A stretch of DNA of 64,000 nucleotides from a virus: positions 21,309 to 85,308 of IMG/VR virus record IMGVR_UViG_3300044998_000260; one strand, written 5' to 3'. The position numbers were made by a program, and so were the translations under genes. Shown here in pieces: positions 21,036 through 37,838 of this stretch. Position 1 is the stretch's first letter. The number at the start of each line of letters is the position of its first letter. The notes under the pieces are model-generated. The model saw only the letters and a program-made list of their open reading frames with translations, was not told the DNA's origin and did not search any database.

Positions 21036-21378
21036 TGGACCTGAGGGGGAATCGAACCCCCTGTCCAAAGCATTATACTAAGTGACTCTTCTCCGTGCGC
21101 AGTTCGTTGTCTCATTTTTGATTCAATGTATCACACCGAACAAATCTACATTGTCTCTATCCGATTGTCAATCTCGATCTTATCGGAGTCTGTCAAGATT
21201 TACCCCTTATCGTGAGTTTTTCGTTATCAGGGGATTAACGAAAAACTTCTCGGCTATATTAAGCAGCGAGAGCAAGCGCAGGATTTGCACTTAAAAGTTT
21301 GATTCCATTTAACGAGATCGAATCAGTCTCGGCACGCTTCATTCACACTTCTAACCTCTGTCGAAACCTGGCAGGCCC
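21036..21378 (-). ncRNA. ssrA: tmRNA, tag ANPALALAA*
   Basis: GGGCCTG/CAGGTCC acceptor with G3-U, GGTTTCGAC, T-arm GGGGGTTCGATTCCCCC, tag ORF 21288-21259. Confidence 0.93.
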
Positions 21379-21389
21379 TTTGTTGCTTA

Positions 21390-21932
21390 TCAAACTTCAA
21401 TAAGCAGCTCATCAAGATAATCAAACAGACTATCAATTACAACAACCTGATCTGTGTCAAACTTGTGATAATTTGACTGCATTGCCAACTTGAAATCGTC
21501 GTGTTCCTTTCTATACATATCCACCAAACGACCACCTGATTCCACATTGGCAATGCGATCAGCCACCTTCACCAACACCGCTTTGTAGTTCTGGGCAATA
21601 CGCGGATACGCCTGCGCATGTCGCCACTTGCGATTGCCGCCCTTCGGTTCAGTGACCGCCGCCACAATGTCAGCAATTTCACGACCGAAGAAAGTAATTA
21701 AATCTTCGTATTCGGCATCAGTATCTTCAAGAACATCGTGCAGCCATGCGGCGACACGAAGATCTTCATCAAAAATACCAAATCGAAGTAACACACTTTC
21801 TACTGCCTGTAAGTGTAGAGCATACGGAAACTCGTCACCATACTTCTGCTCACCGTGGGCACGGACGGCAAATCGCTTTGCGCGGTATACCTTGTCTACG
21901 GCTTCGCGAGCCACAATGTTTACATCGGTCAT
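21390..21932 (-). CDS. RelA/SpoT-type HD hydrolase (small alarmone hydrolase-like)
   Basis: AHGEQKY..PYALHL, AAWLHDVLEDT, VKVADRIAN. Confidence 0.85.
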   Translation of the reverse strand: MTDVNIVAREAVDKVYRAKRFAVRAHGEQKYGDEFPYALHLQAVESVLLRFGIFDEDLRVAAWLHDVLEDTDAEYEDLITFFGREIADIVAAVTEPKGGNRKWRHAQAYPRIAQNYKAVLVKVADRIANVESGGRLVDMYRKEHDDFKLAMQSNYHKFDTDQVVVIDSLFDYLDELLIEV

Positions 21933-22008
21933 ATTATCTCCTAGATGCTTTGTTCTAATATACCACACCTAGGTCTCAAAGTCAAGTAACAATTGTAACA
22001 GGTTTGTA

Positions 22009-22413
22009 TCAGTCGGTTACAATAATTTGACGCTCTAAAAGCTCCTCAATCGCTTCCCGAATCTGCTTTCTAGTACGATTTGTAGGATATCGCATTTTTC
22101 TTTCAATCGTCCATACAGATTCGCACACTTCGTCTTCGGTCATGAATCTTGTAGACGACACAGATCGAATAATATCACCGTATTTACGACTTACATCCCG
22201 CATAATCGAACCACCAAAAATAGGCTTAACGATACCAGAATCAGAATACAAATTGAGTTTATAACGAACTGGTGTATCTACTACAGTTACGGACTTTTGT
22301 GGTTCCGACTTGGGCTCCGGCGCAATCTCCGGCTTCTTTTCCACAGCCTTCGTGGGTTCCGTCTTGACCGATTCTACGGTCGGAGTAACATTTTTTTCAG
22401 TAACATCAGACAT
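22009..22413 (-). CDS. hypothetical protein
   Basis: ORF. Confidence 0.6.
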   Translation of the reverse strand: MSDVTEKNVTPTVESVKTEPTKAVEKKPEIAPEPKSEPQKSVTVVDTPVRYKLNLYSDSGIVKPIFGGSIMRDVSRKYGDIIRSVSSTRFMTEDEVCESVWTIERKMRYPTNRTRKQIREAIEELLERQIIVTD

Positions 22414-22508
22414 AATATTATCCCCAAAAATGGGCAAAGAAAGGTCTACTATTGTAAATATCAATCAGATTGAAATAAATCAATGAACACTATTCATCAT
22501 TTATTTTT

Positions 22509-23168
22509 TTACACAAGAATCATTTCGAATTCGTCGAGGATTCTGCACTTTCCATCAATAACACTTCTGTGCATATGTCCACAATACATCTGCGGATTAC
22601 CCAAACTATCCCAAATATTCTGGACAATATCAGCATTATGATCGCGCCAATCCATAGGCACACCAAAAAATTGAAGAGCATCCTTACTGAAATTGCCTTG
22701 AATAACATTCTGTGGCGGAACATGCGTAATTAGCATGTCCACCTTATTGTTGTTTTGGCCAAGCTCCAAAAGCAATCGGTCCACATCCTGTTGGCGGATG
22801 TTTTCTTTATCGCTCCAATGCATACCATATATGAGTCTAATATTCTTGTCAATCGAGGCGGCACCGCCCATAAAGGCAATCGTGCGTCCATCAATCGTTA
22901 ATACACGTCCTCGCGGTACAAAAAAACAGTTATTATGAATATCGACCAAATCATCGGCATCAAGAAAAAGAGCATGTTGCTCATGATTACCATCAATCCA
23001 ATAGACCGGCAACGGCAACTTGTATTGAAACAAACGATTTATCACTCCATCGTAATATCCAAAGTCACCGACTTGAATGAGTGCGTTAGCGCCGGCTTCG
23101 TGCGCCTTAACTGCACGATCTTCCAACACTTCAAACGCGCCGTGAATGTCACCGAGAATTGCAATCAT
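22509..23168 (-). CDS. calcineurin-like metallophosphoesterase
   Basis: GDIHG, GDFG, GNHE, THVPP, CGHMH. Confidence 0.9.
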   Translation of the reverse strand: MIAILGDIHGAFEVLEDRAVKAHEAGANALIQVGDFGYYDGVINRLFQYKLPLPVYWIDGNHEQHALFLDADDLVDIHNNCFFVPRGRVLTIDGRTIAFMGGAASIDKNIRLIYGMHWSDKENIRQQDVDRLLLELGQNNNKVDMLITHVPPQNVIQGNFSKDALQFFGVPMDWRDHNADIVQNIWDSLGNPQMYCGHMHRSVIDGKCRILDEFEMILV

Positions 23169-23272
23169 AAAAATGACCTAGTTGGGGATGACTTTGAAAT
23201 ATACCTACTAGAAAAGAAAAAATCAAGGGTATTTGCCTTGACTTTTTCGGTATTACTAATTTGTTACATTAG

Positions 23273-23359
23273 CGGAAGACACGGGACTCGAACCCGCAAC
23301 TCCCTTGTGGGGAGCACCTCGTTTCCAGCGAGGCTCCTAATCCAATTCGGATATCTTCC
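23273..23359 (-). tRNA. tRNA-Ser(GGA)
   Basis: cloverleaf, long variable arm. Confidence 0.9.
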
Positions 23360-23484
23360 AAACGGGCCGACCTATACCACCTTCATCGAGAAGGTTTCTC
23401 TTGGCAAACGGTCCTAATTTACCCGGCAAGGTTATATTAAGCGTAACGGAAGACCAAGATTCGACCCAAGGTGACTATAAATAG

Positions 23485-23796
23485 TTAGACTGACTTGATT
23501 GCTTCAAGTTCTTCTTGTGCTTTTCGCAAATCTTCTTCTTTTTGCAAAAGCGAGGCCACCAAGAAAATACATCCCACAGCAACATCCATTGCTTCAGAGG
23601 CGACTTCTACGGGATCATTACTACGAACTGCCTCTAAAAGTTCGTGATATTCTTCTGCAATAATACCAAGTCCTTCGTGGTTGCTAACAAATGCTCCTTT
23701 ACCCTTCTGTTCAATACGGCCCCCCACGGCACGTACCATTTCTTCAAGAGTGCGATTCAAAATTTCATCAGTAACTTGCGGACGTATAAATGACAT
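23485..23796 (-). CDS. MazG-like NTP pyrophosphohydrolase
   Basis: IIAEEYHELLEA..EAMDVA. Confidence 0.6.
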   Translation of the reverse strand: MSFIRPQVTDEILNRTLEEMVRAVGGRIEQKGKGAFVSNHEGLGIIAEEYHELLEAVRSNDPVEVASEAMDVAVGCIFLVASLLQKEEDLRKAQEELEAIKSV

Positions 23797-23820
23797 ATAT
23801 CCTCTTTGTGGAGTCCATGA

Positions 23821-24894
23821 TTAAGAATAATACAAACGTGGCAAATTGTCAAGCCATATATGTTCACTTCTACGAACATATTTCTTGAGAGCCTTTCTTT
23901 GACACTCAAGCCATATAAAATGACGGTCATAGAATAGAACTCGCTTCATTGCTCGAACAATACTCTTAGTATCGGTAGTCTTGGCCGTGAAAAATTTCGG
24001 CATCCAATCCACTTCGGTAGATGTTACAATCGGTATATCGCGATTGACAAAATCCGCAGAAACAATATTGAATGTTTCCGAGAAACTCACTTGTAAACCA
24101 AGATCCATCTGATCAACCAATGCAATAAACTCATCACGATCAAGCCAATCGTGTTCTACGAGTTCATGCTTGCCGGCCACACCAGCAAATAATGCTCGCA
24201 AATTTTTCAGTACGACTTCACCGCGCTGTTCAATTCTACCCGCATTGATATGAAATCGGAGCTTCAATCCTTTTTGATCCGCAAATTGAATAGCCGCTGC
24301 TGCCTGTGTCAGATGATTTTTCATTGGACGAATTGCGCCAAAGCATCCAATGTCAATCGTTTCGCCTTTATCCCAGAATAATTCGGCCGGCGTTGTTCGA
24401 TCACCTACTGGATAGTAGTTTGGCAAGAACACCAATTTATGTGCCAAATTCCCATCAGTCGTGCTCTTGAAATAATTTATTAAATCGCGATGAGTGAAAT
24501 CTGAGTTTGCAGATACGAACACATTATCTTTTCGAACATAGGCATTGATCCACTCCATTGCAATACCTTCATTTGTTAAAAATGAAAGATCACTATGTAA
24601 ACGAATTATCCATTTGACATTGGGATGTAATCTTCGTAATACATCAAATTTCTCAGGTACCACCCAAAGAGCTTCGATGATAACGATATCGGGTTTGTAT
24701 GCGGTTACTTCACGATCAATAGAATTATTATCTACTACTTGAACAAGCTTTGATTCATATCCGTTCTTCAACAACATTTCATGTACAAATGTTGCAGAAT
24801 TGAACAGACCGGCACTCTTTAGAAGACGATCCCCGCTGTCAGGTCCGTACTGATGACGAAACTTTAGAATGAATAGAACTCGCGGCGTTTTCAT
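23821..24894 (-). CDS. glycosyltransferase-like protein
   Basis: IGCFGAIRPMKNH, SFSETFNIVSAD (GT-B-like). Confidence 0.5.
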   Translation of the reverse strand: MKTPRVLFILKFRHQYGPDSGDRLLKSAGLFNSATFVHEMLLKNGYESKLVQVVDNNSIDREVTAYKPDIVIIEALWVVPEKFDVLRRLHPNVKWIIRLHSDLSFLTNEGIAMEWINAYVRKDNVFVSANSDFTHRDLINYFKSTTDGNLAHKLVFLPNYYPVGDRTTPAELFWDKGETIDIGCFGAIRPMKNHLTQAAAAIQFADQKGLKLRFHINAGRIEQRGEVVLKNLRALFAGVAGKHELVEHDWLDRDEFIALVDQMDLGLQVSFSETFNIVSADFVNRDIPIVTSTEVDWMPKFFTAKTTDTKSIVRAMKRVLFYDRHFIWLECQRKALKKYVRRSEHIWLDNLPRLYYS

Positions 24895-25007
24895 GGATAC
24901 TTCTCGGCAAAGGTGAAATAACAACTATAAATAGTCAAGTCAATTTACGATGTGTGTGATTTTTATCGCGGTTCTTCTCTGAACTGTATGATAATACTTC
25001 CTAATAG

Positions 25008-25079
25008 TACCCTCGTTGGGATTTGAACCCAATCTTCATGTTTAGGAAACGAGCGTGCTGTCCATTACACCACGAAGGC
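25008..25079 (-). tRNA. tRNA-Arg(CCT), weak anticodon stem
   Basis: good acceptor/D/T arms; mismatched anticodon stem. Confidence 0.6.
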
Positions 25080-25081
25080 AT

Positions 25082-25291
25082 CTACGTGTCACGCATATTC
25101 ATATCAAGCGTATAATTACGACTTATGGTAATTTGATTTGAGTCGTAATGGTTAATCTTTCCGGTTTCAAGATTAGCAATCAACCAATGTGTGTTTTCAT
25201 GCGGACCATAATCAATAATGAATAAGGCCTGCCCCATACCATGTGGTGTGTTTACCCATAAAACTTGTTGTATTTCGTGAATGGTGGTCAT
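25082..25291 (-). CDS. hypothetical protein
   Basis: 69-aa ORF, ATGA-coupled to upstream gene. Confidence 0.65.
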   Translation of the reverse strand: MTTIHEIQQVLWVNTPHGMGQALFIIDYGPHENTHWLIANLETGKINHYDSNQITISRNYTLDMNMRDT

Positions 25292-25521
25292 GTAATATAC
25301 GCGACAAGTTTATCATCTTTGGTCTTTAACTCTAAATGACCTTTGAAACGAATGCTGGCCTTGGTATGTGGATTGTCCGGTGTTTCTTTGGTAGAAAATC
25401 CTCGTTCTGACTCAAAGTGCCAAATGTAATGTGTTTGACCCTTGTGCTTGATGATCCACGGTGGAATGTTCTATGGATCGGCGTTATGGGCTTTGTTATA
25501 GTGAAAGATAATGGTATCCAT
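25288..25521 (-). CDS. 77-codon gene with in-frame TAG at codon 17 (readthrough candidate or pseudogene)
   Basis: GAGGA RBS; MDTIIFHYNKAHNADP*NIPPWIIKHKGQ..AYIT; TGA overlaps next ATG. Confidence 0.6.
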
Positions 25522-25685
25522 ACATATTCCTCAATTTATAGTTGATATAATAAACGCCGTTAAGACAGGCCGTTGTTGACCCGCCTCAACGGCGTTGATG
25601 TTTGTCCATGTCCGCCTCAAGCCCACAGAGGTGATTCTAGTTCATAAATTCTTCTTCAATTGGATTGCATATATCCTTGTTTAAG

Positions 25686-25769
25686 CGGAAGCAGAGGGAT
25701 TCGAACCCCCAAAACCTTTCGGTTCGACACTTTTCAAGAGTGCTTAACACGCCAATTGTTCGTGCTTCC
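25686..25769 (-). tRNA. tRNA-Ser(TGA)
   Basis: cloverleaf. Confidence 0.9.
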
Positions 25770-25821
25770 ATTATTCATTATAACTTATACTTATCGTATT
25801 TTGTAGAAGTTAATTTTGCAG

Positions 25822-25894
25822 TGCTCACGGAAGGGATCGAACCTTCTATCTCTGCTATGTCAAAGCAGCGTGTTAGCCGGTACACCACGCGAGC
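25822..25894 (-). tRNA. tRNA-Val(GAC)
   Basis: cloverleaf. Confidence 0.9.
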
Positions 25895-25898
25895 AATA

Positions 25899-25971
25899 TG
25901 CCCATAGCGGGACTTGAACCCGCATCAACCGTTTTAGAGACGGTTGCTCTATGCCTTTGAGCTATATGGAC
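25899..25971 (-). tRNA. amber suppressor tRNA (CTA)
   Basis: ACCGT-CT CTA AA-ACGGT; complete 73-nt cloverleaf. Confidence 0.9.
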
Positions 25972-26046
25972 TGGAGGTACGAGGTGGATTTCAACCACCG
26001 CCTTCAGTTTTGCAAGCTGATGTCTTGAGCACTTGACTATCGTACC
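25972..26046 (-). tRNA. tRNA-Cys(GCA), CCA encoded
   Basis: cloverleaf. Confidence 0.8.
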
Positions 26047-26049
26047 ATT

Positions 26050-26126
26050 TGGTGGCAGACACGGGAGTCGAACCCGCTATCTCATTGGTTATGAGACAAA
26101 ATGGTTTTCCGTTCCACTCACCTGCA
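26050..26126 (-). tRNA. tRNA-Met(CAT)-like, weak anticodon stem
   Basis: 1-72 mismatch, CCA encoded. Confidence 0.6.
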
Positions 26127-26136
26127 ATTTTTCTAG

Positions 26137-26210
26137 TGGCGGGAGGAGGATTTGAACCTCCGACCTCGACGTTATGAGCGTCGCGAGCTACCAGGCTGCT
26201 CTATCCCGCA
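26137..26210 (-). tRNA. initiator-like tRNA-fMet(CAT)
   Basis: 1-72 mismatch, GAGCAGCCTGGTAGCTCG D-arm. Confidence 0.85.
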
Positions 26211-26211
26211 G

Positions 26212-26284
26212 TTGCTCTTCCAGGGATCGAACCTGGACTTTCCTGTTTCAGAGACAGGCGTGTTGCCTATTACACCAAAGAGCA
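26212..26284 (-). tRNA. tRNA-Gln(CTG)
   Basis: cloverleaf. Confidence 0.9.
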
Positions 26285-26293
26285 ATAAAAATG

Positions 26294-26488
26294 AATGTTC
26301 CGTAGCCGCAGTTCTGTTCTATCCTATCATTTATCTAAGCACCAACCCGCAGTTCTCTAGGGTCAAGCAATCTGCTGTTTGGCTTGCTGCGTTGCTGTGG
26401 TCTACGCGATGGTATTACCATCTTCCACATCCCCATTGCAGCTGCGAACTTCCTCCAGGTGTCACCACCCAGCGATAGGTCGAACATT
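26294..26488 (-). ncRNA. rnpB: minimal RNase P RNA (195 nt)
   Basis: GAGGAAGTTCGCAG..AGATAAATG..AACAGAACTGCGGCT; P1-P4, P6, P15 pair. Confidence 0.88.
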
Positions 26489-26509
26489 CATTAATATGTT
26501 TTACTATAG

Positions 26510-26582
26510 TCGGGATGGAGGGACTCGAACCCCCGATTTCTTGCTCCCAAAGCAAGTGCCATAGCCACTAGGCGACATCCCG
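26510..26582 (-). tRNA. tRNA-Pro(TGG)
   Basis: cloverleaf. Confidence 0.92.
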
Positions 26583-26588
26583 ATAAAA

Positions 26589-26919
26589 AGAAACGGACTG
26601 AGATTACATCCGTTTATGATTACCCGTTTGTTGGATTATTCCAACCCGTGTCCCCACGGGCCGTTCCCAACTTATCCACACCCTCATGGGCGTCGGCAAT
26701 CAGAGCGACCTTTTTTAAGGTGTGGCATTTCACCTGTCGTCTGGCGCTACTCAACCTTTTCTCTACCACCGAGCTTGCGGCCCGTTCAACTCCGCTAAGA
26801 GTTTATGTGCGAGTCTGGATTGATGAATCTCCGTCTTGGGAACATCGACTCAGCCACATTCGTTACCGTGTGGCATTACGCTCTTTTTCGCGTTCAGACC
26901 GAGGAAGTCTTTCCATTTT
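26589..26919 (-). ncRNA. short GOLLD-like structured RNA
   Basis: no ORF, many hairpins; GTTGAGTAG, GTGGATAAG, AATAATCC, GTAATCTCAG resemble GOLLD 3' domain (recalled). Confidence 0.5.
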
Positions 26920-26994
26920 TGGGTTCAATAGTGGGATTCGCACCCACAACCGATTCTTTAGCATAGAATTGCTCAACTATTGAGCTATATTGAA
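26920..26994 (-). tRNA. atypical tRNA-like gene, anticodon GCT, short variable region, C73, CCA encoded
   Basis: TTCAATA/TATTGAA acceptor; T-loop TGCGAAT. Confidence 0.6.
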
Positions 26995-26996
26995 AC

Positions 26997-27480
26997 CTTG
27001 AGCGAAGTGCTTCCTCAGTAGTTCCCGTATCTTTTGGATACAGAAATGCTACACTCCGCAGTTGTGTTCGGCTTGCGACCTACTTCACCATGTTTTGCGA
27101 CCACGAGCGGCACTTCTAACAGTCGCCCCGCCCAGACCACTCACATTGCAATTCAGCCCTTGACTGCAAAATCTCAAACTGAATTACTATCTGTTACCGA
27201 TACTTCCTCGGCCGTTGGTATGAAAGGAGCCCGGCACCACCCGTCAGACTTCGGTAACCCGCTTTCCTTTCGGGGCGTCGGCTACCGTTCTTTCCCTTTC
27301 ACGACCTTCGGACCTATCACCGCTTTGGGAGCGATGCCACCACAGTCGCTGTGGTGTCGGCCAGACTTGCTTCGGCGAGCGAGACTTTCATCTCACGGGG
27401 ATTACAAGGATACACCCCTTTATATGTCTTACGACATACTATTCTCACGGACCCGAAGCGGCCCGTTACTTCAGTTTTCA
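26997..27480 (-). ncRNA. ROOL-like large structured RNA
   Basis: TGAATTGCAAT, GTAGCATT, CCAAAAG..GGGAAC..ACTTCGC resemble ROOL 3' region (recalled); many hairpins. Confidence 0.5.
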
Positions 27481-27526
27481 ATCAACATTCACGGGGTGAA
27501 GCTGAACCAGCTTCACCCGCCACCAC

Positions 27527-27685
27527 TCACTTTTTATCGTTGTGTGAGTCAACTACTGTCAATCCTTGTCTCTTTGCCTGTTCTTGAAGAGCTTCTACAT
27601 GTCGCTTGCCAAGAGCCTCGGCTTCGGCAAGAAAAACCGGATAATTGGCTTCGGTAATAACGACTTCACACGAATTGTTTGCCAT
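27527..27685 (-). CDS. 52-aa hypothetical protein
   Basis: AGAGGA RBS; MANNSCEVVITEANYPVFL.. Confidence 0.55.
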   Translation of the reverse strand: MANNSCEVVITEANYPVFLAEAEALGKRHVEALQEQAKRQGLTVVDSHNDKK

Positions 27686-27708
27686 ATTTCCTCTTTTGTT
27701 TTAGAAAA

Positions 27709-31105: not shown

Positions 31106-31112
31106 ATAAAAG

Positions 31113-31185
31113 CGCCCTTGGCAGGAATCGAACCCACATCTGCGGAGGTAGAAGCTCCGTGCCTTCTCCATTAGACCACAAGGGC
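31113..31185 (-). tRNA. tRNA-Arg(TCT)
   Basis: cloverleaf. Confidence 0.92.
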
Positions 31186-31310
31186 AATTCATTCATTGTC
31201 ATCAATATCATCGGACTCAAATTCAAATCCATCAATATTACGATACTTGTGTGCCGTTGGATGAGAATCGTATCCTCGGTTGTGACCTGTTCTCCAGTGC
31301 ATCGCCTTGT

Positions 31311-31883
31311 TCAACTTAGTCCCAACTTAGTCCACACATTGTTACGAAGCATCGACTCTCGGAGTTCACCAAACCGAGATTCAATCTCTTGATTGGGAAT
31401 CCAATGTTGAGTCACCATATTTGGTTCTTTACGAAATACCAAATAAAAGTCATTCATAAATACACAGCCAGTCACAATATACTTCTGTTTATAGCCACGA
31501 ATGTGTGTGACATCCACCCATTCACGTTTTGTGAAAAACGACTTGTGCTTTTCACTCAATTCATCGTATTGTTGTTGCGTCAAATACTTTGGCTTCTGTG
31601 GTATTGGTTCCCATTTATTCGTTTTCCAGTTACGACGAAGGAACTTTTCATTATTACAGAATTCAATCGTATTAATCTTATCTAGCACTTGTTGCATTTC
31701 TCGAGCATCTTTACGATTCTTTGCATCATCACTAAGAACATAATACCGAACCCATCCGCGCTGATACGGTTCTACATCGATCCATTCACCGCTCTTACGG
31801 CGTGCGTCAGACAAAGTCGTGTATTCGTTCCAGATACGGCGAATCCGCTTGTGTTCTTCGGTCTTATAATTACGCCGCATCAA
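31311..31883 (-). CDS. hypothetical protein, C-terminus frameshifted by 11-bp duplication
   Basis: CAACTTAGTCC x2 at 31312-31333. Confidence 0.7.
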   Translation of the reverse strand: MMRRNYKTEEHKRIRRIWNEYTTLSDARRKSGEWIDVEPYQRGWVRYYVLSDDAKNRKDAREMQQVLDKINTIEFCNNEKFLRRNWKTNKWEPIPQKPKYLTQQQYDELSEKHKSFFTKREWVDVTHIRGYKQKYIVTGCVFMNDFYLVFRKEPNMVTQHWIPNQEIESRFGELRESMLRNNVWTKLGLS

Positions 31884-32379
31884 TACCCTTATATTTCCGT
31901 AAATATCGGTTTCTTTTTGTATCTTTCTTTTGTCTAGTTACAAATGTTTCTGTTTGACTATGACAGTTGGGACATAAAAGTCTAAGGTTTTTCGGCAAAT
32001 TGTTATCACTATTGCCGTCTATGTGATCTAGTTGTAGAGTAAGTGGTTTGTTTAGATGTTTACCTAAATTTCCACAACCAACACATACATAACCAACAGT
32101 TCTAGTGATGTAGTTCTTTAGTGTTGAAGCTTGTGACACTTCGCCATTTTCTACTCTAATTCGTGTTATAGTCTCAAACTTGTAAGTCTTGTCACACTCA
32201 ATAGAACAACATCTGAATCGGCTTTCTTTGCCACAAACTCTACAATTATAGAGTGTTGATTTTCTTTGTCTTTTAGGAAATTTGTTGTTGTTGACGATTG
32301 CCGCACATTTCCGTGAACAAAATTTATTTTGTGGTTTACTAGAAATATCCGTATTGCAGTTTATACATAAATTTATCAT
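31870..32379 (-). CDS. HNH endonuclease with Zn ribbons
   Basis: LQLDHIDGNSDNNLPKNLRLLCPNCHSQT. Confidence 0.92.
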   Translation of the reverse strand: MINLCINCNTDISSKPQNKFCSRKCAAIVNNNKFPKRQRKSTLYNCRVCGKESRFRCCSIECDKTYKFETITRIRVENGEVSQASTLKNYITRTVGYVCVGCGNLGKHLNKPLTLQLDHIDGNSDNNLPKNLRLLCPNCHSQTETFVTRQKKDTKRNRYLRKYKGIDAA

Positions 32380-32439
32380 ATAGGATTCGAATTGTGGTTA
32401 CCTATATAAGTAATATTTACTGTTAGTTTCAATTCAAAA

Positions 32440-32516
32440 TACTCCGTGTAGGATTCGAACCTACGATCATATCCTGTATGTAAGACAGGTGCCCTGGGCC
32501 ACTAGGCGAACGGAGT
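32440..32516 (-). tRNA. tRNA-Val(TAC)
   Basis: cloverleaf. Confidence 0.88.
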
Positions 32517-32522
32517 GTAAAG

Positions 32523-32593
32523 TTACCCCACTACGATTCGAACGTAGATTCGTTGGTTCAAAGCCAACTGTCTTGCCATTAGACGATGGGGCA
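32523..32593 (-). tRNA. tRNA-Gln(TTG)
   Basis: cloverleaf. Confidence 0.9.
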
Positions 32594-32684
32594 ATGTATT
32601 GCCTTATCGTTGGATAAGGCAATAAATACGGACTCTAGCTACACTCCGGAGTGACTAGTTTAATCGGGTCCGTGCCGAAATCAA

Positions 32685-32758
32685 TGTGCCATACTGGAAT
32701 CGAACCAGTGACCACCGATTTATAAGACCGGTGCTCTAACCAACTGAGCTAATGGCAC
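32685..32758 (-). tRNA. tRNA-Ile(TAT)
   Basis: cloverleaf, CT TAT AA. Confidence 0.88.
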
Positions 32759-32764
32759 ATAAAA

Positions 32765-32838
32765 TGCACGTGGTAGGATTCGAACCTACGCACTTCGAAT
32801 TATGAGTTCGCTGCTCTAACCAACTGAGCTAAGGGACC
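32765..32838 (-). pseudogene. chimeric tRNA(CAT), acceptor strands do not pair
   Basis: 5' GGTCCCT vs 3' CACGTGC. Confidence 0.7.
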
Positions 32839-32858
32839 GTTAGAGATGTCGTTTATAA

Positions 32859-32958
32859 TACGCCTACTGGGACTTGAACCCAGAATAATCCGCATATCAG
32901 GCGGCTCCTTTCGGGCGGAGGTATAAGCTCCGTGCTTTAACCATTAAGCTATAGGCGC
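32859..32958 (-). tRNA. tRNA-Ile(TAT) with ~30-nt variable region
   Basis: cloverleaf + extra CCGC-CTGATAT-GCGG hairpin. Confidence 0.75.
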
Positions 32959-32974
32959 GTATATTCACCACAAG

Positions 32975-33051
32975 TCCGCCCAATAGGAATCGAACCTACG
33001 TGGTACCGTCTATTCTTTCAACCGCATATCAGGCGGAGGGAATATGGGCGG
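32975..33051 (-). ncRNA. rearranged tRNA-like RNA with GAT loop, copy 1
   Basis: 7-bp acceptor and T-arm; no canonical D/anticodon arms. Confidence 0.7.
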
Positions 33052-33067
33052 ATATTTTTACTACAAG

Positions 33068-33143
33068 TGCGCCCGACTGGAATTGAACCAGTGTGTACCG
33101 TCTACCTTTTCAACCGCTTATCAGGCGGAGAGGATACGGGCGC
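33068..33143 (-). ncRNA. rearranged tRNA-like RNA with GAT loop, copy 2
   Basis: same fold with compensatory changes. Confidence 0.7.
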
Positions 33144-33148
33144 GTATT

Positions 33149-33586
33149 TTACAAATATTCAAGTTTCCACCAATTAAAACTATGTGCTGTTTTTATTTGA
33201 TGACAATTTGCACATCTAATTATACACTTAGATATTTCTTGTTTTAAACGAGCCATTCCTATAGGACGTTTTGAAGAAATTTTTTCGCTTATATTAAAAT
33301 GTTTATTCGTTTGATGATCGAATTGTAGAGTTAGAATATTACGTTCACCACAATCTATACAAGGATTTTGTTTCAAATACTCTATAACATAATCACGTAT
33401 TTGTCTTATGCGTTTTTCTGAGTGTACGGATGCGGTTGTTATACGTTTTTGTCTATGTTTGATGTAATATTGTTCTTGATATGTTTTTTCACACAACTTA
33501 CATCTATGTGTAAGTCCGTTTCTTTTCTTGTAAAATTCAGAAACATGTTTTTCTTTATTACATATAGAACACTGTTTTGTATTCAT
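33149..33586 (-). CDS. HNH endonuclease
   Basis: CIDCG..LQFDH..CIIRCANCH. Confidence 0.9.
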   Translation of the reverse strand: MNTKQCSICNKEKHVSEFYKKRNGLTHRCKLCEKTYQEQYYIKHRQKRITTASVHSEKRIRQIRDYVIEYLKQNPCIDCGERNILTLQFDHQTNKHFNISEKISSKRPIGMARLKQEISKCIIRCANCHQIKTAHSFNWWKLEYL

Positions 33587-33758
33587 ATTATTCTCCAATG
33601 TGTGATACATATAATATGGAGTTGAACGTCAAAACGTATGTATCAGATCAACATATTTCCTTCTAAGAGCCCCCAATCGGTTCTGGTCCGTCCTCTCCGA
33701 GCCATTTATCTACTTCTTAATTTTCGTCCAAACCCTTTATTTTGCGAATACAGAAAAG

Positions 33759-33839
33759 AGCTGCCTGTGAGAATCGAACTCACAATATCTTACGATGCTA
33801 CCATACCAAGGTAGTGCCTTTCCATTAGGCTAAGGCAGC
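33759..33839 (-). tRNA. tRNA-Thr(GGT) with long variable arm
   Basis: variable ATC-GTAA-GAT hairpin. Confidence 0.8.
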
Positions 33840-33843
33840 ATTA

Positions 33844-33958
33844 TGGGAAACCAACATACATCCGAAGATAAGTTGTGTGGTGCTGTGTCAGCAGTCTTCG
33901 ATATTCATCTACCCTGACAGATAGTGAATCCTTATCTTTTCTTACCACTAAATTCCCA
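33844..33958 (-). ncRNA. unclassified RNA with possible kissing loops
   Basis: AAGATAAG/CTTATCTT stem; loops TGTCAG and CTGACA complementary. Confidence 0.45.
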
Positions 33959-33960
33959 AG

Positions 33961-34032
33961 AGCTCGATTAGAGAGTTGAACTCTATTCTCTGACTTACGA
34001 GGCCAGTGCATCACCCTTTATGCTTATCGAGC
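33961..34032 (-). tRNA. tRNA-Thr(CGT)
   Basis: cloverleaf. Confidence 0.85.
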
Positions 34033-34120
34033 AATTTCCACCAACCAAATTGCTTGGCTGTTTTACGTTTATGACAATTTGCACATCTAACTTCACATTT
34101 ACTAATTTCATTTAGATTAC
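34011..34120 (-). pseudogene. HNH endonuclease C-terminal relic
   Basis: EISKCEVRCANCHKRKTAKQFGWWK, paralogous to end of 33149-33586. Confidence 0.75.
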
Positions 34121-34123
34121 GAG

Positions 34124-34199
34124 ACTCTCCGACAGGATTTGAACCTGCGATTTGTACGGTTTTGCAGACCGTTGCCTTTGACCACTCAGCCACGGAGAG
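34124..34199 (-). tRNA. tRNA-Cys(GCA)
   Basis: cloverleaf. Confidence 0.88.
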
Positions 34200-34242
34200 A
34201 AGAAAACGTCACTTATCGGTGAGTATTACACACCTTAGACAA

Positions 34243-34326
34243 AGCTGGTGGTGGGATTCGAACCCACGGTGGGATTGCTCCGCTTGCTTACAAGGCAAGT
34301 CCTATCAACCGCTAAGGGACACCAGC
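34243..34326 (-). tRNA. tRNA-Thr(TGT) with long variable arm
   Basis: variable GGA-GCAA-TCC hairpin. Confidence 0.82.
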
Positions 34327-34359
34327 AAATTACAATTTACTTGTTTAAGCCGTCTACGA

Positions 34360-34409
34360 TTGTTAGATGGTTTACAAAACCTGTGCATCACCATTAATGC
34401 TTAAAGAGC
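34360..34409 (-). pseudogene. tRNA-Thr(TGT) 5' fragment
   Basis: acceptor 5', D-arm and anticodon only. Confidence 0.5.
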
Positions 34410-34490
34410 ATAAATCAACAAAAGTGGATTAGAACATCGTTGGTCTTACATGCTAACACTTCTATGTTTACAATCACACATTTTTTTGTG

Positions 34491-34557
34491 GTTTCCGTTC
34501 GGGTTGGGTTACTTTCTAAATCTACACAATAACAACTTTTTTGTCAAGCCCTCTGAT
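34491..34557 (-). promoter_or_regulatory. sigma70-type promoter + AACCCAACCCG leader, duplicated at 57969-58036
   Basis: TTGACA-17-TAGATT; ~65-bp near-identical copy. Confidence 0.75.
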
Positions 34558-34648
34558 CGCGATCAGAAAACGCCCCATGTTCCTATTGAAAAATTAAGTG
34601 GAGGATGAGAGAATTGCAATTCAATTTTGATGTTTTCCACTAATTATA

Positions 34649-34721
34649 TGGAGACTACGGGTAACGCTCCCGTTCCTACGCATTGCAAGTGCGTCGTGCC
34701 ACCTTTTAACACCTAGTCCCC
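34649..34721 (-). tRNA. tRNA-Ala(TGC), atypical T-loop
   Basis: G3-U70; T-loop AGCGTTA. Confidence 0.8.
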
Positions 34722-34722
34722 A

Positions 34723-35247
34723 ATGTCTTTCATTACTAAAATCTGCCAAGTGTGTGCCAAAGAATTTCAAGCAAAACTGTCGGAACATAAACGTGGCAAC
34801 TCAAAAACTTGTTCAAAGAAATGCGGTGCAGTTCTTAGTTCAAGGGTTCGTACAAAAATCAAAATTCCGAACGCCACCTGTGCATTTTGCAAAATCGAAT
34901 TTTACATGCGTCCATCATCCAAGAAAAATTCAAAGAGTGGTATTTTCTTTTGCTGCCGAACACATAAAGATATGGCACAACGGCTCGGTGGTATTCCAGA
35001 AATTCAACCAGCACACTACGGTACTGGTAATGGAATTAGTACATACAGAGACTTAGCATTTTCACATTACGATGCGCGGTGCAACCAATGTGGATATCAA
35101 AAGTTCAAAGAAGTGTTAGATGTTCATCACATTGATAATGATAGATCAAACAACAACATAGAAAATTTAGAAATACTCTGTCCTACATGCCACCGAGAAC
35201 GACACTATATACTAAAAACAGGATGGTATGCGCGATCAAAAAAGTAA
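34723..35247 (+). CDS. HNH endonuclease, antisense to tRNA array
   Basis: LDVHHIDNDRSNNNIENLEILCPTCH. Confidence 0.92.
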   Translation: MSFITKICQVCAKEFQAKLSEHKRGNSKTCSKKCGAVLSSRVRTKIKIPNATCAFCKIEFYMRPSSKKNSKSGIFFCCRTHKDMAQRLGGIPEIQPAHYGTGNGISTYRDLAFSHYDARCNQCGYQKFKEVLDVHHIDNDRSNNNIENLEILCPTCHRERHYILKTGWYARSKK

Positions 35248-35330
35248 TCATCATGTACCATACACTCGAAAGTGTAGATTGGACTCGAACCAATTTTAAC
35301 CAGAGAACAACAATTCATCGTACCACAAAC

Positions 35331-35402
35331 TACCACAGTAGGAGTCGAACCCTATCTTCCTCTTTGCAAGAGAGGCGCTTTCCCAAATTAAGCTACCGGC
35401 CC
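35331..35402 (-). pseudogene. chimeric tRNA-Ala(TGC), mispaired acceptor
   Basis: 5' GGGCCGG vs 3' CTGTGGT. Confidence 0.65.
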
Positions 35403-35407
35403 ATAAG

Positions 35408-35482
35408 AGTACCGTGTGGGGATCGAACCCACCTATAACTGTTTAACAGACAGCCGCAATCAACCAGACATGCCAACGGTAC
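35408..35482 (-). tRNA. tRNA-Asn(GTT)
   Basis: cloverleaf. Confidence 0.85.
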
Positions 35483-35588
35483 ATAATACATTTACATTTG
35501 TCGTGTGTAACTGGTGGACTCGCCTTCGCTACATTCGGACACGACACCGAATACAGTGTTTAACTCGCTCTGGCTGAGCCCACACAAG

Positions 35589-35660
35589 ATGGAGTGAAAG
35601 GAATTGAACCTTTATCATCGCTTTCAGAGAGCGAGGTAATTGCCGTTATACGACACTCAA
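35589..35660 (-). tRNA. tRNA-Gln(CTG)
   Basis: cloverleaf, one acceptor mismatch. Confidence 0.8.
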
Positions 35661-35665
35661 ATAAA

Positions 35666-36238
35666 TCAAATTAGTTCATACTTTTTTGCCCACTTACGAA
35701 CTGCGTTATCAGACACATTATATTTTCTACCTATCGCAGCCCATGAATATTTTTCTAAATCATGTTGTAATTCAATTTTTGTTGGTCTTTTCACAACACG
35801 ACGATTTAAAGATTTACAATCATCACAACATCTACGACTTTTACTAAATGTATTTAATGTAGTGTTACAATATTTACAAGTTCGAATCTTTGGTTGTCTT
35901 ACTTCACGATAATTTATATACGATTCATCAAACTTAATATAGTTATTTGGCAACTTTGTAACACCTGCTTCAACTTCTCTATGACAATTTGAACATAAAA
36001 GAACACACCTACGCAGTTCTTCTACAACAACATTCCATTTTTTTGGATTTGCTATTACTTGTGATATACTAAAGTTTTTTGTTGACGGATCTATGTGATG
36101 AAAATCCATTGCTTCTATGCATGAACAGTATCCACATATAACACATTTACCGCCCATAGAATCTACCATTAATTTTTTTGTAGATTTACGCCACTTGTTT
36201 ACTTTTTTACTATTACTACTCATAGAATTACTCCTCAT
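35666..36238 (-). CDS. HNH endonuclease with C-terminal HTH-like segment
   Basis: CVICGY..MDFHHIDP..CVLLCSNCH; SWAAIGRKYNVSDNAVRKW. Confidence 0.92.
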   Translation of the reverse strand: MRSNSMSSNSKKVNKWRKSTKKLMVDSMGGKCVICGYCSCIEAMDFHHIDPSTKNFSISQVIANPKKWNVVVEELRRCVLLCSNCHREVEAGVTKLPNNYIKFDESYINYREVRQPKIRTCKYCNTTLNTFSKSRRCCDDCKSLNRRVVKRPTKIELQHDLEKYSWAAIGRKYNVSDNAVRKWAKKYELI

Positions 36239-36287
36239 TTATCTATAAGTAGTTCGAACTATCGAAAAAGTAACATATACTGTTATA

Positions 36288-36359
36288 CAGGAGCGGAAAG
36301 ATTCGAACTTTCATTGACGGAGTAACAATCCGTGGGCTTGCCTTTTAGCCGACACTCCT
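36288..36359 (-). tRNA. tRNA-Asn(GTT)
   Basis: cloverleaf. Confidence 0.82.
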
Positions 36360-36407
36360 AAAAATGAAGGTTCCTCGCCGGCCTGCGCCGTCACCTACAA
36401 CCGACAG

Positions 36408-36481
36408 GGTGAATGACGGGATTTGAACCCGCGTCTGCAGCCTTCACAGGGCTGTGTAATATCCGCTATACTACATTCACC
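36408..36481 (-). tRNA. tRNA-His(GTG)
   Basis: G-1 and C73. Confidence 0.92.
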
Positions 36482-36627
36482 ATAATTGGCAGTTTTGTCG
36501 CCGAAGCGCCAGTGTCGAACTCTGCCAAACGACATTTTTGTTGTGTAAGGTGCCTTTCGGCTTTAAATGATCCGTTATCCTCTCTCCCACTCTGACGGAT
36601 CAAGCAGGTCAATTGACACAACATATA

Positions 36628-36700
36628 TGCACCGCCTGGGACTCGAACCCAAATCTTACCGGTTAAGAGCCGGATGTAATAGCCATTATACTAACGATGC
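36628..36700 (-). tRNA. tRNA-Lys(CTT)
   Basis: cloverleaf. Confidence 0.9.
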
Positions 36701-36704
36701 GTTA

Positions 36705-36779
36705 TGCCCCTGGTAGGATTCGAACCCACACCTGATAGATTAAAAGTCTACTGTGCTCGCCGTTAAACACCACAGAGGC
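36705..36779 (-). tRNA. tRNA-Lys(TTT)
   Basis: cloverleaf. Confidence 0.9.
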
Positions 36780-36791
36780 GTTGTACTACAG

Positions 36792-36867
36792 TCTGGACGA
36801 CTGGATTCGAACCAGCGTGCTCCTCCTCCCAAGGGAGGCGAGGTAAACCAGGCTCCTCAACGTCCAG
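36792..36867 (-). tRNA. tRNA-Pro(TGG)
   Basis: cloverleaf. Confidence 0.88.
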
Positions 36868-36873
36868 ATAAAG

Positions 36874-36945
36874 TGCCCTCATCAGGATTCGAACCTGAAA
36901 TCGGAGTTCCGTAGACTCCTGTGATGTCCATTTCACTACAAGGGC
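36874..36945 (-). tRNA. tRNA-Arg(ACG)
   Basis: cloverleaf. Confidence 0.9.
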
Positions 36946-37020
36946 ATAGTCCGATATTTGTATTGCGTGTCGGAATCAGCACGCTTGCCGTTATGGCTTT
37001 ATGTCAAAAATCTACTTCAG

Positions 37021-37108
37021 TGCGTGTGGAGGGAATTGAACCCCCGACGGGCTTTTACACCAACGGATTTACAGTCCGGTGCCACCAACCAGCATTGGCC
37101 TCACACGC
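37021..37108 (-). tRNA. tRNA-Tyr(GTA)
   Basis: GCGTGTG/CACACGC acceptor, long variable arm. Confidence 0.9.
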
Positions 37109-37184
37109 GACATCAAGTTAAGAATTTGCCAAACCGGCATACTTTCTTGATGTTTCGACTCCAACGAGTCATCATCAGGCGTGT
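37103..37184 (-). ncRNA. type I hammerhead ribozyme; predicted cut between 37109 and 37108
   Basis: ACACGC-CTGATGA-T-GACTC(GTTG)GAGTC-GAAA-CATCAAG..CTTGAT-GTC^GCGTGT. Confidence 0.9.
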
Positions 37185-37196
37185 CCTACTTTTTGT

Positions 37197-37225
37197 ATTA
37201 TACCTAATATCAACTTATTTGTCAA
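37197..37225 (-). promoter_or_regulatory. perfect sigma70 consensus promoter ahead of hammerhead-tRNA-Tyr
   Basis: TTGACA-17-TATAAT. Confidence 0.9.
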
Positions 37226-37230
37226 GCCAA

Positions 37231-37317
37231 CGGAAACGGCCGGAGTCGAACCGACATTGCCTTTTGAGGGGCTTGACTGTTTTCGAAACAGCTTGCTACA
37301 CCAATTGCCGCGTTTCC
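37231..37317 (-). tRNA. tRNA-Ser(CGA)
   Basis: cloverleaf. Confidence 0.88.
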
Positions 37318-37331
37318 AAATTCACTATCAG

Positions 37332-37420
37332 CGGAAAGTAAGGGATTCGAACCCTTTAAACCGTTTTACAGGTTTACTGCTTAGCAGGCAGTTGCACCGC
37401 GCCATCTGTGCCGACTTTCC
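37332..37420 (-). tRNA. tRNA-Ser(GCT)
   Basis: cloverleaf. Confidence 0.9.
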
Positions 37421-37424
37421 AAAG

Positions 37425-37496
37425 CGCCCCAAGAGGGATTCGAACCCCCACTAAAACGTTCGAAGCGTTTCGTGCTCTCCGTTACACTATCGAGGC
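37425..37496 (-). tRNA. tRNA-Arg(TCG)
   Basis: cloverleaf. Confidence 0.88.
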
Positions 37497-37512
37497 ATAT
37501 CACAACATCAAG

Positions 37513-37584
37513 TCCCACTGGCAGGGATCGAACCTGCCTCTCCGGTTCTTCAGACCGGCGCTAATCCATCTCAGCTACTGTGGG
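37513..37584 (-). tRNA. tRNA-Phe(GAA)
   Basis: cloverleaf. Confidence 0.88.
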
Positions 37585-37608
37585 ATATCTTGAACCCACA
37601 CCTATACA

Positions 37609-37682
37609 CAGGTCGGGAGGGAATCGAACCCATCTTTAAGGCAGTTTTGGAGACTGCTGTTCAACCGGAGAACATCCGACCC
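37609..37682 (-). tRNA. tRNA-Trp(CCA)
   Basis: cloverleaf. Confidence 0.85.
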
Positions 37683-37763
37683 ATAGTTTTATGACTTTTG
37701 CGTGCAATTTTCTGTGACAGTTGGCACATAAAACTACACATTTACTAATTTCTTAAATTTTGA

Positions 37764-37838
37764 CGGGATGTACGGGAATCGAACCCGTCTGTTGTCCGCA
37801 GTGACAGTGCGGTGGCCCCACCTTTGGCCCGACACCCC
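37764..37838 (-). tRNA. tRNA-Asp(GTC)
   Basis: cloverleaf. Confidence 0.88.

Follow-up and report, generated by a model that had tools for sequence, protein, structure and literature searches.

Overview of the tRNA island

The region from position 21036 to 37838 of a 64,000-nucleotide (nt) stretch of virus DNA from the IMG/VR database, called the window in the following, is probably a transfer RNA (tRNA) island of a jumbo phage that holds three catalytic RNAs, spacers of heterogeneous nature, and tRNAs that depend on the host for their maturation. The three RNAs, for which catalysis is predicted, are a mini ribonuclease P (RNase P) RNA, a type I hammerhead ribozyme, and a group I intron. A sequence-only reading had described the region as an RNA-only toolkit for the maintenance of translation, and its inventory turned out to be largely real, i.e., the tRNAs, an amber suppressor tRNA, a transfer-messenger RNA (tmRNA), the RNase P RNA, the tRNA-linked hammerhead, and the tRNA-Leu intron were all confirmed from the sequence; catalytic RNAs are unusually numerous in it. 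The label "RNA-only" did not hold, because about 7.5 kb of the 16.8 kb are open reading frame (ORF) and at least 14 protein genes are present, including four HNH genes. Phage tRNA islands with GOLLD, tmRNA, and introns inside are already known. The sequence-only reading went too far in three points: the island is not RNA-only, not host-independent, and its spacers are not uniform.

The window comprises bases 21309-85308 of a 105,488-base IMG/VR fragment (record IMGVR_UViG_3300044998_000260), which is about 48% complete according to CheckV; the whole genome of this large uncultured jumbo phage has a size of roughly 220 kb. RNA genes were searched with ARAGORN and with Rfam, the latter at the gathering score and at E <= 1 over positions 20000-39500. 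The best relative is G001, a complete phage genome of 217,729 bp with terminal repeats. The tRNA order is nearly identical in G001 and the window (Asp, Phe, Arg, Ser, Ser, Tyr ... Ser(GGA), tmRNA), the block of GOLLD, tRNA-Pro, RNase P RNA, and tRNA-Gln is found at an equal position in both, and the suppressor tRNA and the tmRNA are likewise part of the syntenic array of G001. In the relatives other than G001 the arrays are shuffled. A search of GenBank phages with positions 26000-30000 yielded tRNA-level matches only and no close relative, and a metagenome scan with a 105-amino-acid ORF of the island yielded only three short contigs, the closest of which has 81% amino acid identity.

All RNA genes of the island are on the minus strand, and the island would be transcribed leftward from several sigma-70-type promoters. 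The near-complete tRNA set, the suppressor, and the tmRNA would keep phage translation going. This role is suggested because codon supply and the replacement of tRNAs lost to host nucleases are the established roles of phage tRNAs. Both have been proposed in the literature, and the countering of anticodon nucleases has been established for the phage tRNAs themselves (PMC10264068, PMC11555353, PMC11464382).

The island resembles the tRNA islands of T4-like, T5-like, and jumbo phages in its dense one-strand tRNA array, its homing endonucleases, and its small stable RNAs. The tRNA region of T4, for example, encodes the stable RNAs species 1 and 2. The coverage of all amino acids is shared with Xanthomonas phage XacN1, which has 56 tRNAs for all 20 amino acids (PMC5852040). 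Compared to these, the present one adds an RNase P RNA, a hammerhead-tRNA fusion, GOLLD, tmRNA, and several rearranged tRNA-like genes within 17 kb.

A strongly reduced RNase P RNA in phage tRNA operons

The first of the three RNAs was detected between tRNA-Pro and tRNA-Gln:

26291-26491, minus strand: mini RNase P RNA, 201 nt (RF00373, 46.8 bits, E 1e-10, alignment end to end)

It has kept the motifs GAGGAA, AGCAA..CAAACAG, CGGGU (with the GGU of L15), TAGA..ATGA, and ACAGAA..GGCUA. The specificity domain (P7-P14) is nearly gone, with about 40 nt in the place of 121 model positions. Helix P4 consists of the pairs A-U, G-C, a bulged U, U·G, C-G, G-C, C-G, A-U, and G-C. When the element was compared with four phage homologues, compensatory changes on both strands were found in P1, P2, and P4, and the P4 pairs across the five sequences are CGCAG/CUGCG, CGCUG/CAGCG, CGGCG/CGCCG, CAGG/CCUG, and CCGG/CCGG. 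The homologue in G001 is 264 nt long and reaches 100.1 bits with RF00010 (cut-off 100). Two further related phage contigs have sub-threshold RNase P matches, and another relative was found by a blastn match.

IMG/VR was scanned with one degenerate 16-base motif, which yielded 116 loci, and these loci were then searched with a six-sequence nhmmer profile; the family was judged by nhmmer and by a direct count of P4 pairing. Among the 116 loci, the profile gave 65 near-full-length matches (median 207 nt, range 165-376 nt). In 38 of these 65 a tRNA on the same strand was at most 300 nt away, and in 19 a tRNA started at most 30 nt downstream. A perfect 5-bp P4 core was found in 94% of 48 distinct viral sequences, compared to 41% (maximum 58%) with shuffled partners. 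Two of these RNAs, located inside tRNA arrays, are above the Rfam cut-off (scores of 180.7 in locus L193 and 143.3 in locus L091), one of them beside a tmRNA. A further example came from a cultured phage, Stenotrophomonas phage DLP_6 (KU682439.2, 105774-106022; positions 2305-2553 of locus L090), where blastn revealed an unannotated RNase P RNA-like element of 249 nt (RF00010, 54.7 bits, E 1e-15) located 3 nt upstream of tRNA-Arg(CCG). Judged by these sequences, the mini RNase P RNAs are a widespread, covarying, and strongly reduced family inside phage tRNA operons. No description of a phage-encoded RNase P RNA was found in the literature searched, which did not include subscription journals.

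The phage RNA has P1-P4, GAGGAA, TAGA..ATGA, ACAGAA, the bulged-U P4, and the GGU of L15 in common with the bacterial type A RNase P RNA (RF00010). It differs from type A in being phage-encoded, located in a tRNA operon, only 201 nt long, below the cut-off, and without a protein partner from the phage. A reduced form of RNase P RNA is the type T RNA of Pyrobaculum, and the phage RNA resembles it in the large deletion of the specificity domain. The typical length of bacterial RNase P RNA is about 400 nt (PMC5066622); the mini RNase P RNA would rank among the smallest natural ones and would be a natural experiment on the purpose of the specificity domain.

No gene for RnpA was found in G000, G001, and G004, and therefore a host protein would be needed. 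The 201-nt RNA would most likely borrow the RnpA of the host to cut the leaders of pre-tRNAs. The lack of a phage RnpA gene and of the specificity domain, which normally reads the T-loop, would also suit a decoy that soaks up host RnpA or pre-tRNAs and thereby stops the maturation of host tRNAs. This explanation is very unlikely, because the universally conserved catalytic nucleotides and the bulged-U geometry of P4 were kept, which a decoy does not need, and because the regular position a few nt upstream of a tRNA in operons fits a co-expression with substrates.

For a working enzyme, a more specific proposal can be put forward tentatively, although it is rather doubtful on balance. The mini RNase P RNAs of phage arrays (165-260 nt, catalytic domain only) and host RnpA would form a hybrid enzyme that lacks T-loop proofreading and matures non-canonical tRNAs. 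If this were true, the hybrid enzyme would mature the RNAs with a GAU hairpin in the D-stem, the tRNAs with odd T-loops, and the tRNAs with 6-nt anticodon loops that are described below, and it would keep the 5' processing of tRNAs going late in infection, while the hammerhead would free tRNA-Tyr from RNase P altogether. Bench testing is possible because one copy resides in a cultured phage-host pair, that of phage DLP_6.

A hammerhead ribozyme at the 5' end of tRNA-Tyr

The second RNA is part of a compact transcription unit:

37020-37225, minus strand: tRNA-Tyr unit
37197-37225, minus strand: promoter of the unit, sigma-70-type, 12/12 (TTGACA-17-TATAAT)
37103-37184, minus strand: type I hammerhead
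37020-37108, minus strand: tRNA-Tyr(GUA)

The transcript reads ACACGC, CUGAUGA, U, GACUC-GUUG-GAGUC, GAAA, CAUCAAG...CUUGAUG, UC, and GCGUGU. It has the conserved core C3-U4-G5-A6-N7-G8-A9 and G12-A13-A14 (CUGAUGA, GAAA) with one extra U between A9 and G10.1. Stems I, II, and III have 6, 5, and 7 bp, respectively, the triplet is GUC, and the G10.1-C11.1 and A15.1-U16.1 pairs are present. Cleavage is predicted after C 37109, and the next nucleotide, G 37108, is G1 of tRNA-Tyr. The 5' acceptor strand of the tRNA itself serves as the 3' strand of stem I. Self-cleavage would thus leave a tRNA-Tyr that starts at G1 with a 5'-hydroxyl group, without RNase P. In a minimum free energy fold the nascent RNA forms the three-way junction. 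The full precursor prefers the acceptor stem of the tRNA, and, thus, cleavage would have to take place during transcription.

A strict descriptor, applied to both strands of the window, of its genome, and of 1.3 Mb of phage loci, matched only this hammerhead, and a looser descriptor revealed none in 2.3 Mb of loci. Of 39 viral contigs that match the core with the extra nucleotide, 38 hold complete type III hammerheads with covarying stems. Because a populated natural class shares this core, the extra U is not regarded as a defect.

The formation of the mature 5' end of a tRNA is normally the task of RNase P. A published precedent for processing in cis are the theta ribozymes, which resemble the hepatitis delta virus (HDV) ribozyme and lie 3' of phage tRNAs (PMC10879173). 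The present unit is similar in that a small self-cleaving ribozyme in cis with a phage tRNA is proposed to replace a step of a host nuclease. Theta ribozymes follow the tRNA and trim the trailer, whereas the hammerhead precedes the tRNA and would generate its mature 5' end. A natural hammerhead of this kind would do at the 5' end what the theta ribozymes do at the 3' end, and the unit would correspond in nature to a design that laboratories have long employed to produce tRNA transcripts. The theta ribozyme paper (PMC10879173) does not mention any hammerhead, and in the literature covered as above no description of hammerhead-tRNA units in phages was found. The known ability of phage tRNA-Tyr to overcome the degradation of host tRNA-Tyr by a retron effector (PMC11555353) is taken here as a lead and not as evidence.

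In this well-populated class of type III hammerheads in IMG/VR contigs (loci L207-L245), the nucleotide inserted between A9 and G10.1 is U or A, stem II is GAC(U/C)C-AAAA-G(A/G)GUC, and stems I and III covary.

A group I intron in tRNA-Leu(UAA)

The third RNA interrupts a tRNA gene:

28418-28724, minus strand: tRNA-Leu(UAA), split in the anticodon loop by a 232-nt group I intron (ARAGORN intron search)
28498-28699, minus strand: group I intron match, RF00028 (64.9 bits, gathering score 50)

The exons around the intron join to tRNA-Leu. The intron is present in G002 and missing from G001, and it appears to be mobile and is predicted to be self-splicing.

Evidence that weighs against the proposed reading

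Several results weigh against the reading of the island given above. The RNase P RNA of the window is below every Rfam cut-off (RF00373, 46.8 bits versus 84), and RF00010 gave no match to it at E <= 0.01. Its catalytic activity is a prediction, as is the cleavage by the hammerhead. The Rfam hammerhead models did not match the 146-nt stretch of the hammerhead even at E <= 10, likely because of the extra U and of a 28-nt insert in the loop of stem III. No obvious contact between the loops of stems I and II was seen, and the ribozyme may therefore be slow. In G001 there are only 11 nt between tRNA-Ser and tRNA-Tyr and no hammerhead; the hammerhead was found in this genome only, and the unit is therefore lineage-specific. 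Because G001 is the only syntenic relative, the conservation of small spacer modules is a pairwise comparison. Lastly, the genome of the window is about half complete, and, therefore, absences of genes were judged on G001.

Non-canonical tRNA-like genes

The array contains several genes that deviate from the canonical tRNA:

26047-26135, minus strand: tRNA-like gene with a CAU anticodon loop and encoded CCA, 78% identical to a tRNA-Met of G001 at the syntenic place
28811-28887, minus strand: tRNA-like element, CAU in the loop, 82% identity to an element of G001 located after a different tRNA
30758-30866, minus strand: tRNA-like module with T-arm, loop-closed acceptor, and D-arm (RF02553, 37.4 bits, gathering score 69)
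32773-32831, minus strand: tRNA(CAU) without acceptor stem, part of an atypical tRNA-like cluster at 32773-33146
32859-32958, minus strand: tRNA-Ile(UAU) of 100 nt with a GAU anticodon hairpin as variable arm, same cluster
32972-33054 and 33065-33146, minus strand: two tRNA-like genes with the GAU arm in the D-stem (sequence and covariance model R1)

The last two genes occupy the site of two tRNA-Ile(GAU) genes of G001, and no canonical tRNA-Ile(GAU) was found in the window. They have a 7-bp acceptor, a T-arm, A73, and a GAU hairpin nested within the D-stem, and a conserved 12-nt linker takes the place of the usual anticodon arm. Covariance model R1 revealed four more members in other phage contigs, beyond the training set. 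In this family, double-sided changes were found at 13 of 22 pairs, and 92.9% of the cells were paired, versus about 42% when the partners were slid. Sequence comparison thus indicates that these genes are a new, covarying tRNA-like family.

The long variable arm of the neighboring tRNA-Ile(UAU) copies the anticodon stem-loop of tRNA-Ile(GAU): CCGCCUGAUAUGCGG. This arm may be a built-in handle for recognition by isoleucyl-tRNA synthetase.

The module at 30758-30866 shares the T-arm, the loop-closed acceptor, and the D-arm with the tRNA-like domain of YrlA (RF02553). It differs from YrlA in that the Ro-binding stem is deleted in the alignment, the score is about half of the cut-off, and a Ro gene was not found. 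An identity as YrlA or Y RNA was rejected on the basis of the score, the missing Ro stem, and the lack of a TROVE gene; the Ro/TROVE gene was looked for in G001.

Maturation of the tRNAs depends on the host

CCA is encoded in only 3 of 44 tRNAs, and the remaining 41 lack it. In 27 of the 44 the discriminator is directly followed by C-U (C74-U75). In G001 this place is taken by U-A (18) or C-U (16) and CCA is not encoded; CCA is lacking in G002 as well, and in more distant relatives it is encoded in every tRNA. The CCA-less genes suggest that the tRNA genes of the host do not encode CCA either. The C-U after the discriminator may be a conserved signal for 3' processing or for pairing with L15 of RNase P, and as a stand-in for CCA it could pair with the GGU motif that was retained in L15.

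No gene for an RNase Z-type fold, RnpA, SmpB, RtcB, or an Rnl2-type ligase was found in G001, and SmpB was absent from the phage genomes searched. The families PF12706, PF00825, PF01668, PF01139, and PF09414 were absent in G000, G001, and G002 or G004; the search with PF09511 had no positive control. A gene for a CCA-adding enzyme was found in G001 and G004 only. Maturation would still require the host, together with a CCA-adding enzyme of the phage that was seen only in relatives. The claim that the array is independent of host maturation is contradicted by the 41 CCA-less tRNAs and by the proteins missing from G001. What stands of the proposed processing functions are the RNase P RNA, the hammerhead at the 5' end of tRNA-Tyr, and the intron, but not the host independence and not a function of the spacers as a class.

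A single GOLLD RNA

GOLLD adjoins the RNase P RNA (the order is GOLLD, tRNA-Pro, RNase P RNA):

26595-27482, minus strand: one GOLLD RNA, about 890 nt (RF02032, 198.4 bits, gathering score 150, match 26595-27061)

It consists of a variable 5' region (27072-27482), a tRNA-like insert (26920-26994), and a conserved 3' region, and the RF02032 model spans only this conserved 3' part. Known GOLLD RNAs often exceed 800 nt, lie near phage tRNA islands, and form a nanocage according to cryogenic electron microscopy; their 3' region is conserved, the 5' region is less so, and a variable linker can accommodate a tRNA (bioRxiv 10.1101/2024.12.08.627333). The GOLLD of the window matches them in score, length, architecture, and island setting, without a notable difference. 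Two large ornate RNAs, a "short GOLLD" and a "ROOL-like" RNA, had been reported here from the sequence; they are one GOLLD, because positions 27482-26593 align with G001 as an uninterrupted block of 900 nt with 76% identity, and because the architecture is that of the literature. For ROOL (RF03087) there was no Rfam match at E <= 1 over 20000-39500.

The spacers are heterogeneous

The array contains 29 spacers of at least 47 nt, nine of which have a fold z <= -2.5 on the transcribed strand, and many are unstructured (z > -1). Five of the nine are explained by two terminator-like hairpins, one tRNA-like gene, GOLLD, and the hammerhead. The count of about ten unexplained structured spacers that had been given before was overstated, and only about four to six remain without an ordinary explanation. 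The features of the spacers are:

37197-37225 (tRNA-Tyr unit), 29128-29156, and 28781-28809, minus strand, and 34519-34547: strong sigma-70-type promoters, the second and the third with 11/12
29029-29109, minus strand: tRNA-Leu(UAG), flanked by a hairpin spacer (28969-29028) and a promoter spacer (29128-29156)
28969-29028, minus strand: spacer with a conserved GCC-GAAA-GGC hairpin, after tRNA-Leu(UAG) (G001 alignment z 8.3)
36481-36535, minus strand: two-hairpin leader directly before tRNA-His (G001 alignment z 8.3)
28303-28417, minus strand: hairpin module after tRNA-Leu(UAA), z -3.1
25553-25596, minus strand: terminator-like hairpin of 19 bp, which gives the strong fold of the 393-nt spacer 25292-25684
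23216-23248: terminator-like hairpin
34032-34154, minus strand: decayed HNH fragment with a C..C..NCH motif (tblastn 56% over 41 amino acids, E 2e-12)
37681-37752, minus strand: decayed HNH fragment in the Asp-to-Trp spacer with a C..C..NCH motif (tblastn E 4e-5)
27782-27976, minus strand: structured spacer of 195 nt, GC content 0.55, z -2.7, no ordinary explanation
30948-31028, minus strand: long imperfect hairpin with a 15-bp outer stem, z -4.8 (minus) and -6.4 (plus), not conserved in G001
32594-32683, minus strand: two hairpins, of which the second is a perfect stem of 12 bp, z -3.3 (minus) and -5.3 (plus)
27483-27707 and, weaker, 33840-33959 and 35483-35587: remaining spacers without explanation

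Four short modules are common to the window and G001, i.e., the GCC-GAAA-GGC hairpin, the tRNA-His leader, part of the spacer between tRNA-Tyr and tRNA-Arg, and the outer stem after tRNA-Leu(UAA). The leader of tRNA-His has one compensatory pair (GGCAG/CUGCC versus GACAG/CUGUC in G001), and in the module after tRNA-Leu(UAA) the outer stem CUCCG/CGGGG is common to G001 and the sequence of the inner hairpin differs. With blastn, no homologue was revealed for most spacers in 77, and then in 206, related loci, and the 195-nt spacer at 27782-27976 had neither a homologue in 2.3 Mb of related loci nor an Rfam match. The gap between tRNA-Leu(GAG) and tRNA-Leu(UAG) is a 47-nt promoter spacer in the window versus 713 nt in the metagenome relative with 81% identity.

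The GCC-GAAA-GGC sequence occurs at 29010-29019, 30862-30871, 30985-30994, and 36552-36561, of which three are exact and one has a single mismatch, and it is confined to the transcribed strand of the array; about 0.1 exact copies would be expected by chance. This recurrence, the four modules common to G001, the two processing RNAs that reside in "spacers" (RNase P RNA and hammerhead), and the precedent of the theta ribozymes 3' of phage tRNAs (PMC10879173) would agree with the earlier view that the spacers are dedicated processing or protective RNAs in cis, which make the array self-maturing and resistant to anticodon nucleases. As a general explanation this is highly improbable. The majority of the spacers can be assigned to promoters, terminator-like hairpins, intact or degraded HNH genes, other protein genes, or tRNA-like genes, many are unstructured, and their content differs even in the relative with 81% identity. 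Rfam, at the gathering score and at E <= 1, detected no hammerhead, ROOL, HDV-like, or other small ribozyme in the region, and no ribozyme family besides the intron scored at E <= 1. Furthermore, 41 of the 44 tRNAs need 3' cleavage and CCA addition, and the maturation proteins RnpA, SmpB, RNase Z, RtcB, and Rnl2 are missing from G001. The spacers thus do not form one class of elements, as had been proposed; they are heterogeneous and turn over fast, and the hammerhead is absent from G001. From their sequences they are promoters, terminator-like hairpins, HNH genes and remnants, protein genes, tRNA-like genes, shared modules, and four to six lineage-specific hairpins.

The opposite explanation would be that the spacers and the odd tRNA-like genes are mostly debris of homing endonuclease invasion and recombination, and that the mini RNase P RNA was captured from a host and is now in decay. 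The HNH genes (four intact, two decayed), the tRNA(CAU) without acceptor stem, a degenerate Ala-like tRNA, and the rapid turnover of the spacers fit this idea. It is nevertheless unlikely for the island as a whole, because selection acts on the larger elements: in dozens of phage contigs, compensatory changes maintain P1, P2, and P4 of the mini RNase P RNAs and the catalytic motifs are kept, the family with the GAU hairpin in the D-stem has its double changes at 13 of 22 pairs, and GOLLD is conserved over 900 nt. Debris accounts only for some small spacers.

The tRNA set, the amber suppressor, and the tmRNA

ARAGORN detected 45 tRNAs between 23272 and 37839 on the minus strand, Rfam added several that ARAGORN had missed, and the tRNA and tRNA-like genes together amount to about 50. 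The expectation of tRNAs for all 20 amino acids was borne out, with alanine represented by atypical genes only. Genes of this set that deserve mention are:

34649-34720, minus strand: candidate tRNA-Ala(UGC) with G3:U70, A73, and an odd T-loop (Rfam 28.0 bits, gathering score 29)
35331-35400, minus strand: degenerate Ala-like tRNA, the second Ala candidate, with a poorly paired acceptor stem
28052-28125, minus strand: tRNA with a 6-nt anticodon loop (UUCCCA) and encoded CCA (ARAGORN, Rfam 30.4 bits)
25899-25971, minus strand: amber suppressor tRNA(CUA) (Rfam tRNA, 67 bits, and ARAGORN)
21033-21378, minus strand: tmRNA with the tag ANPALALAA* (RF00023, 127.4 bits, gathering score 47; ARAGORN 21035-21378)

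The gene at 28052-28125 is among the few with an encoded CCA. Genes with a 6-nt anticodon loop, which ARAGORN reports as "???" with a two-base anticodon, recur in a relative (locus L026, at about 13143 and 14829). The suppressor tRNA lies flush against the CCA end of tRNA-Cys, and the tmRNA is 77% identical to that of G001.

The genome uses the standard code. A recoding of TAG was rejected, because reading TAG as sense lengthened the ORFs no more than the controls did and TAG terminates 16 of 139 long ORFs. At 25288-25521, 378 nt from the suppressor tRNA, an ORF of 77 codons has a good ribosome binding site and an in-frame TAG at codon 17; it has no homologue among the fetched loci.

Protein genes of the island

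Ten frames matched families of Pfam and PHROGs. The protein genes are:

21390-21968, minus strand: HD-domain phosphohydrolase (HD_4, RelA/SpoT-hydrolase type; PF13328, E 3e-12; PHROG 990, E 3.5e-38)
22509-23168, minus strand: metallophosphoesterase (PF00149, E 1e-11; PHROG 1649, E 7e-31)
23485-23796, minus strand: MazG-like pyrophosphohydrolase (PF01503, E 6e-5)
23821-24924, minus strand: 367-amino-acid protein, candidate GT4-type glycosyltransferase by Atlas feature search (lead only)
within 29275-30673, minus strand: 105-amino-acid ORF (tblastn 62% to G001)
29645-30007, minus strand: thioesterase (PF03061, E 1e-14)
30047-30673, minus strand: methyltransferase (PF13578, E 7e-20)
within 31311-32379, minus strand: 190-amino-acid ORF, conserved in G001
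31870-32379, minus strand: HNH homing endonuclease (Pfam / PHROG)
33149-33610, minus strand: HNH homing endonuclease (PHROG 2255, E 2e-30)
34723-35247, plus strand: HNH endonuclease (family match), between the two Ala candidates
35666-36238, minus strand: HNH homing endonuclease (PHROG 35854, E 6e-33)

In addition, the spacer at 25292-25684 contains small ORFs, apart from its hairpin. The 367-amino-acid protein has 73 relatives in IMG/VR viral contigs and no sequence match in Pfam, PHROGs, or PDB. A role as translation factor was dropped, and the glycosyltransferase lead is the only one left.

The genes for the HD_4 and the MazG-like protein are located between the tmRNA and the array. The two proteins may be alarmone or nucleotide hydrolases that help translation to run. 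A second tRNA group is present at 54478-55193, 17 kb from the main array, and contains tRNA-Lys(UUU), one call with a two-base anticodon, and tRNA-Glu(UUC).

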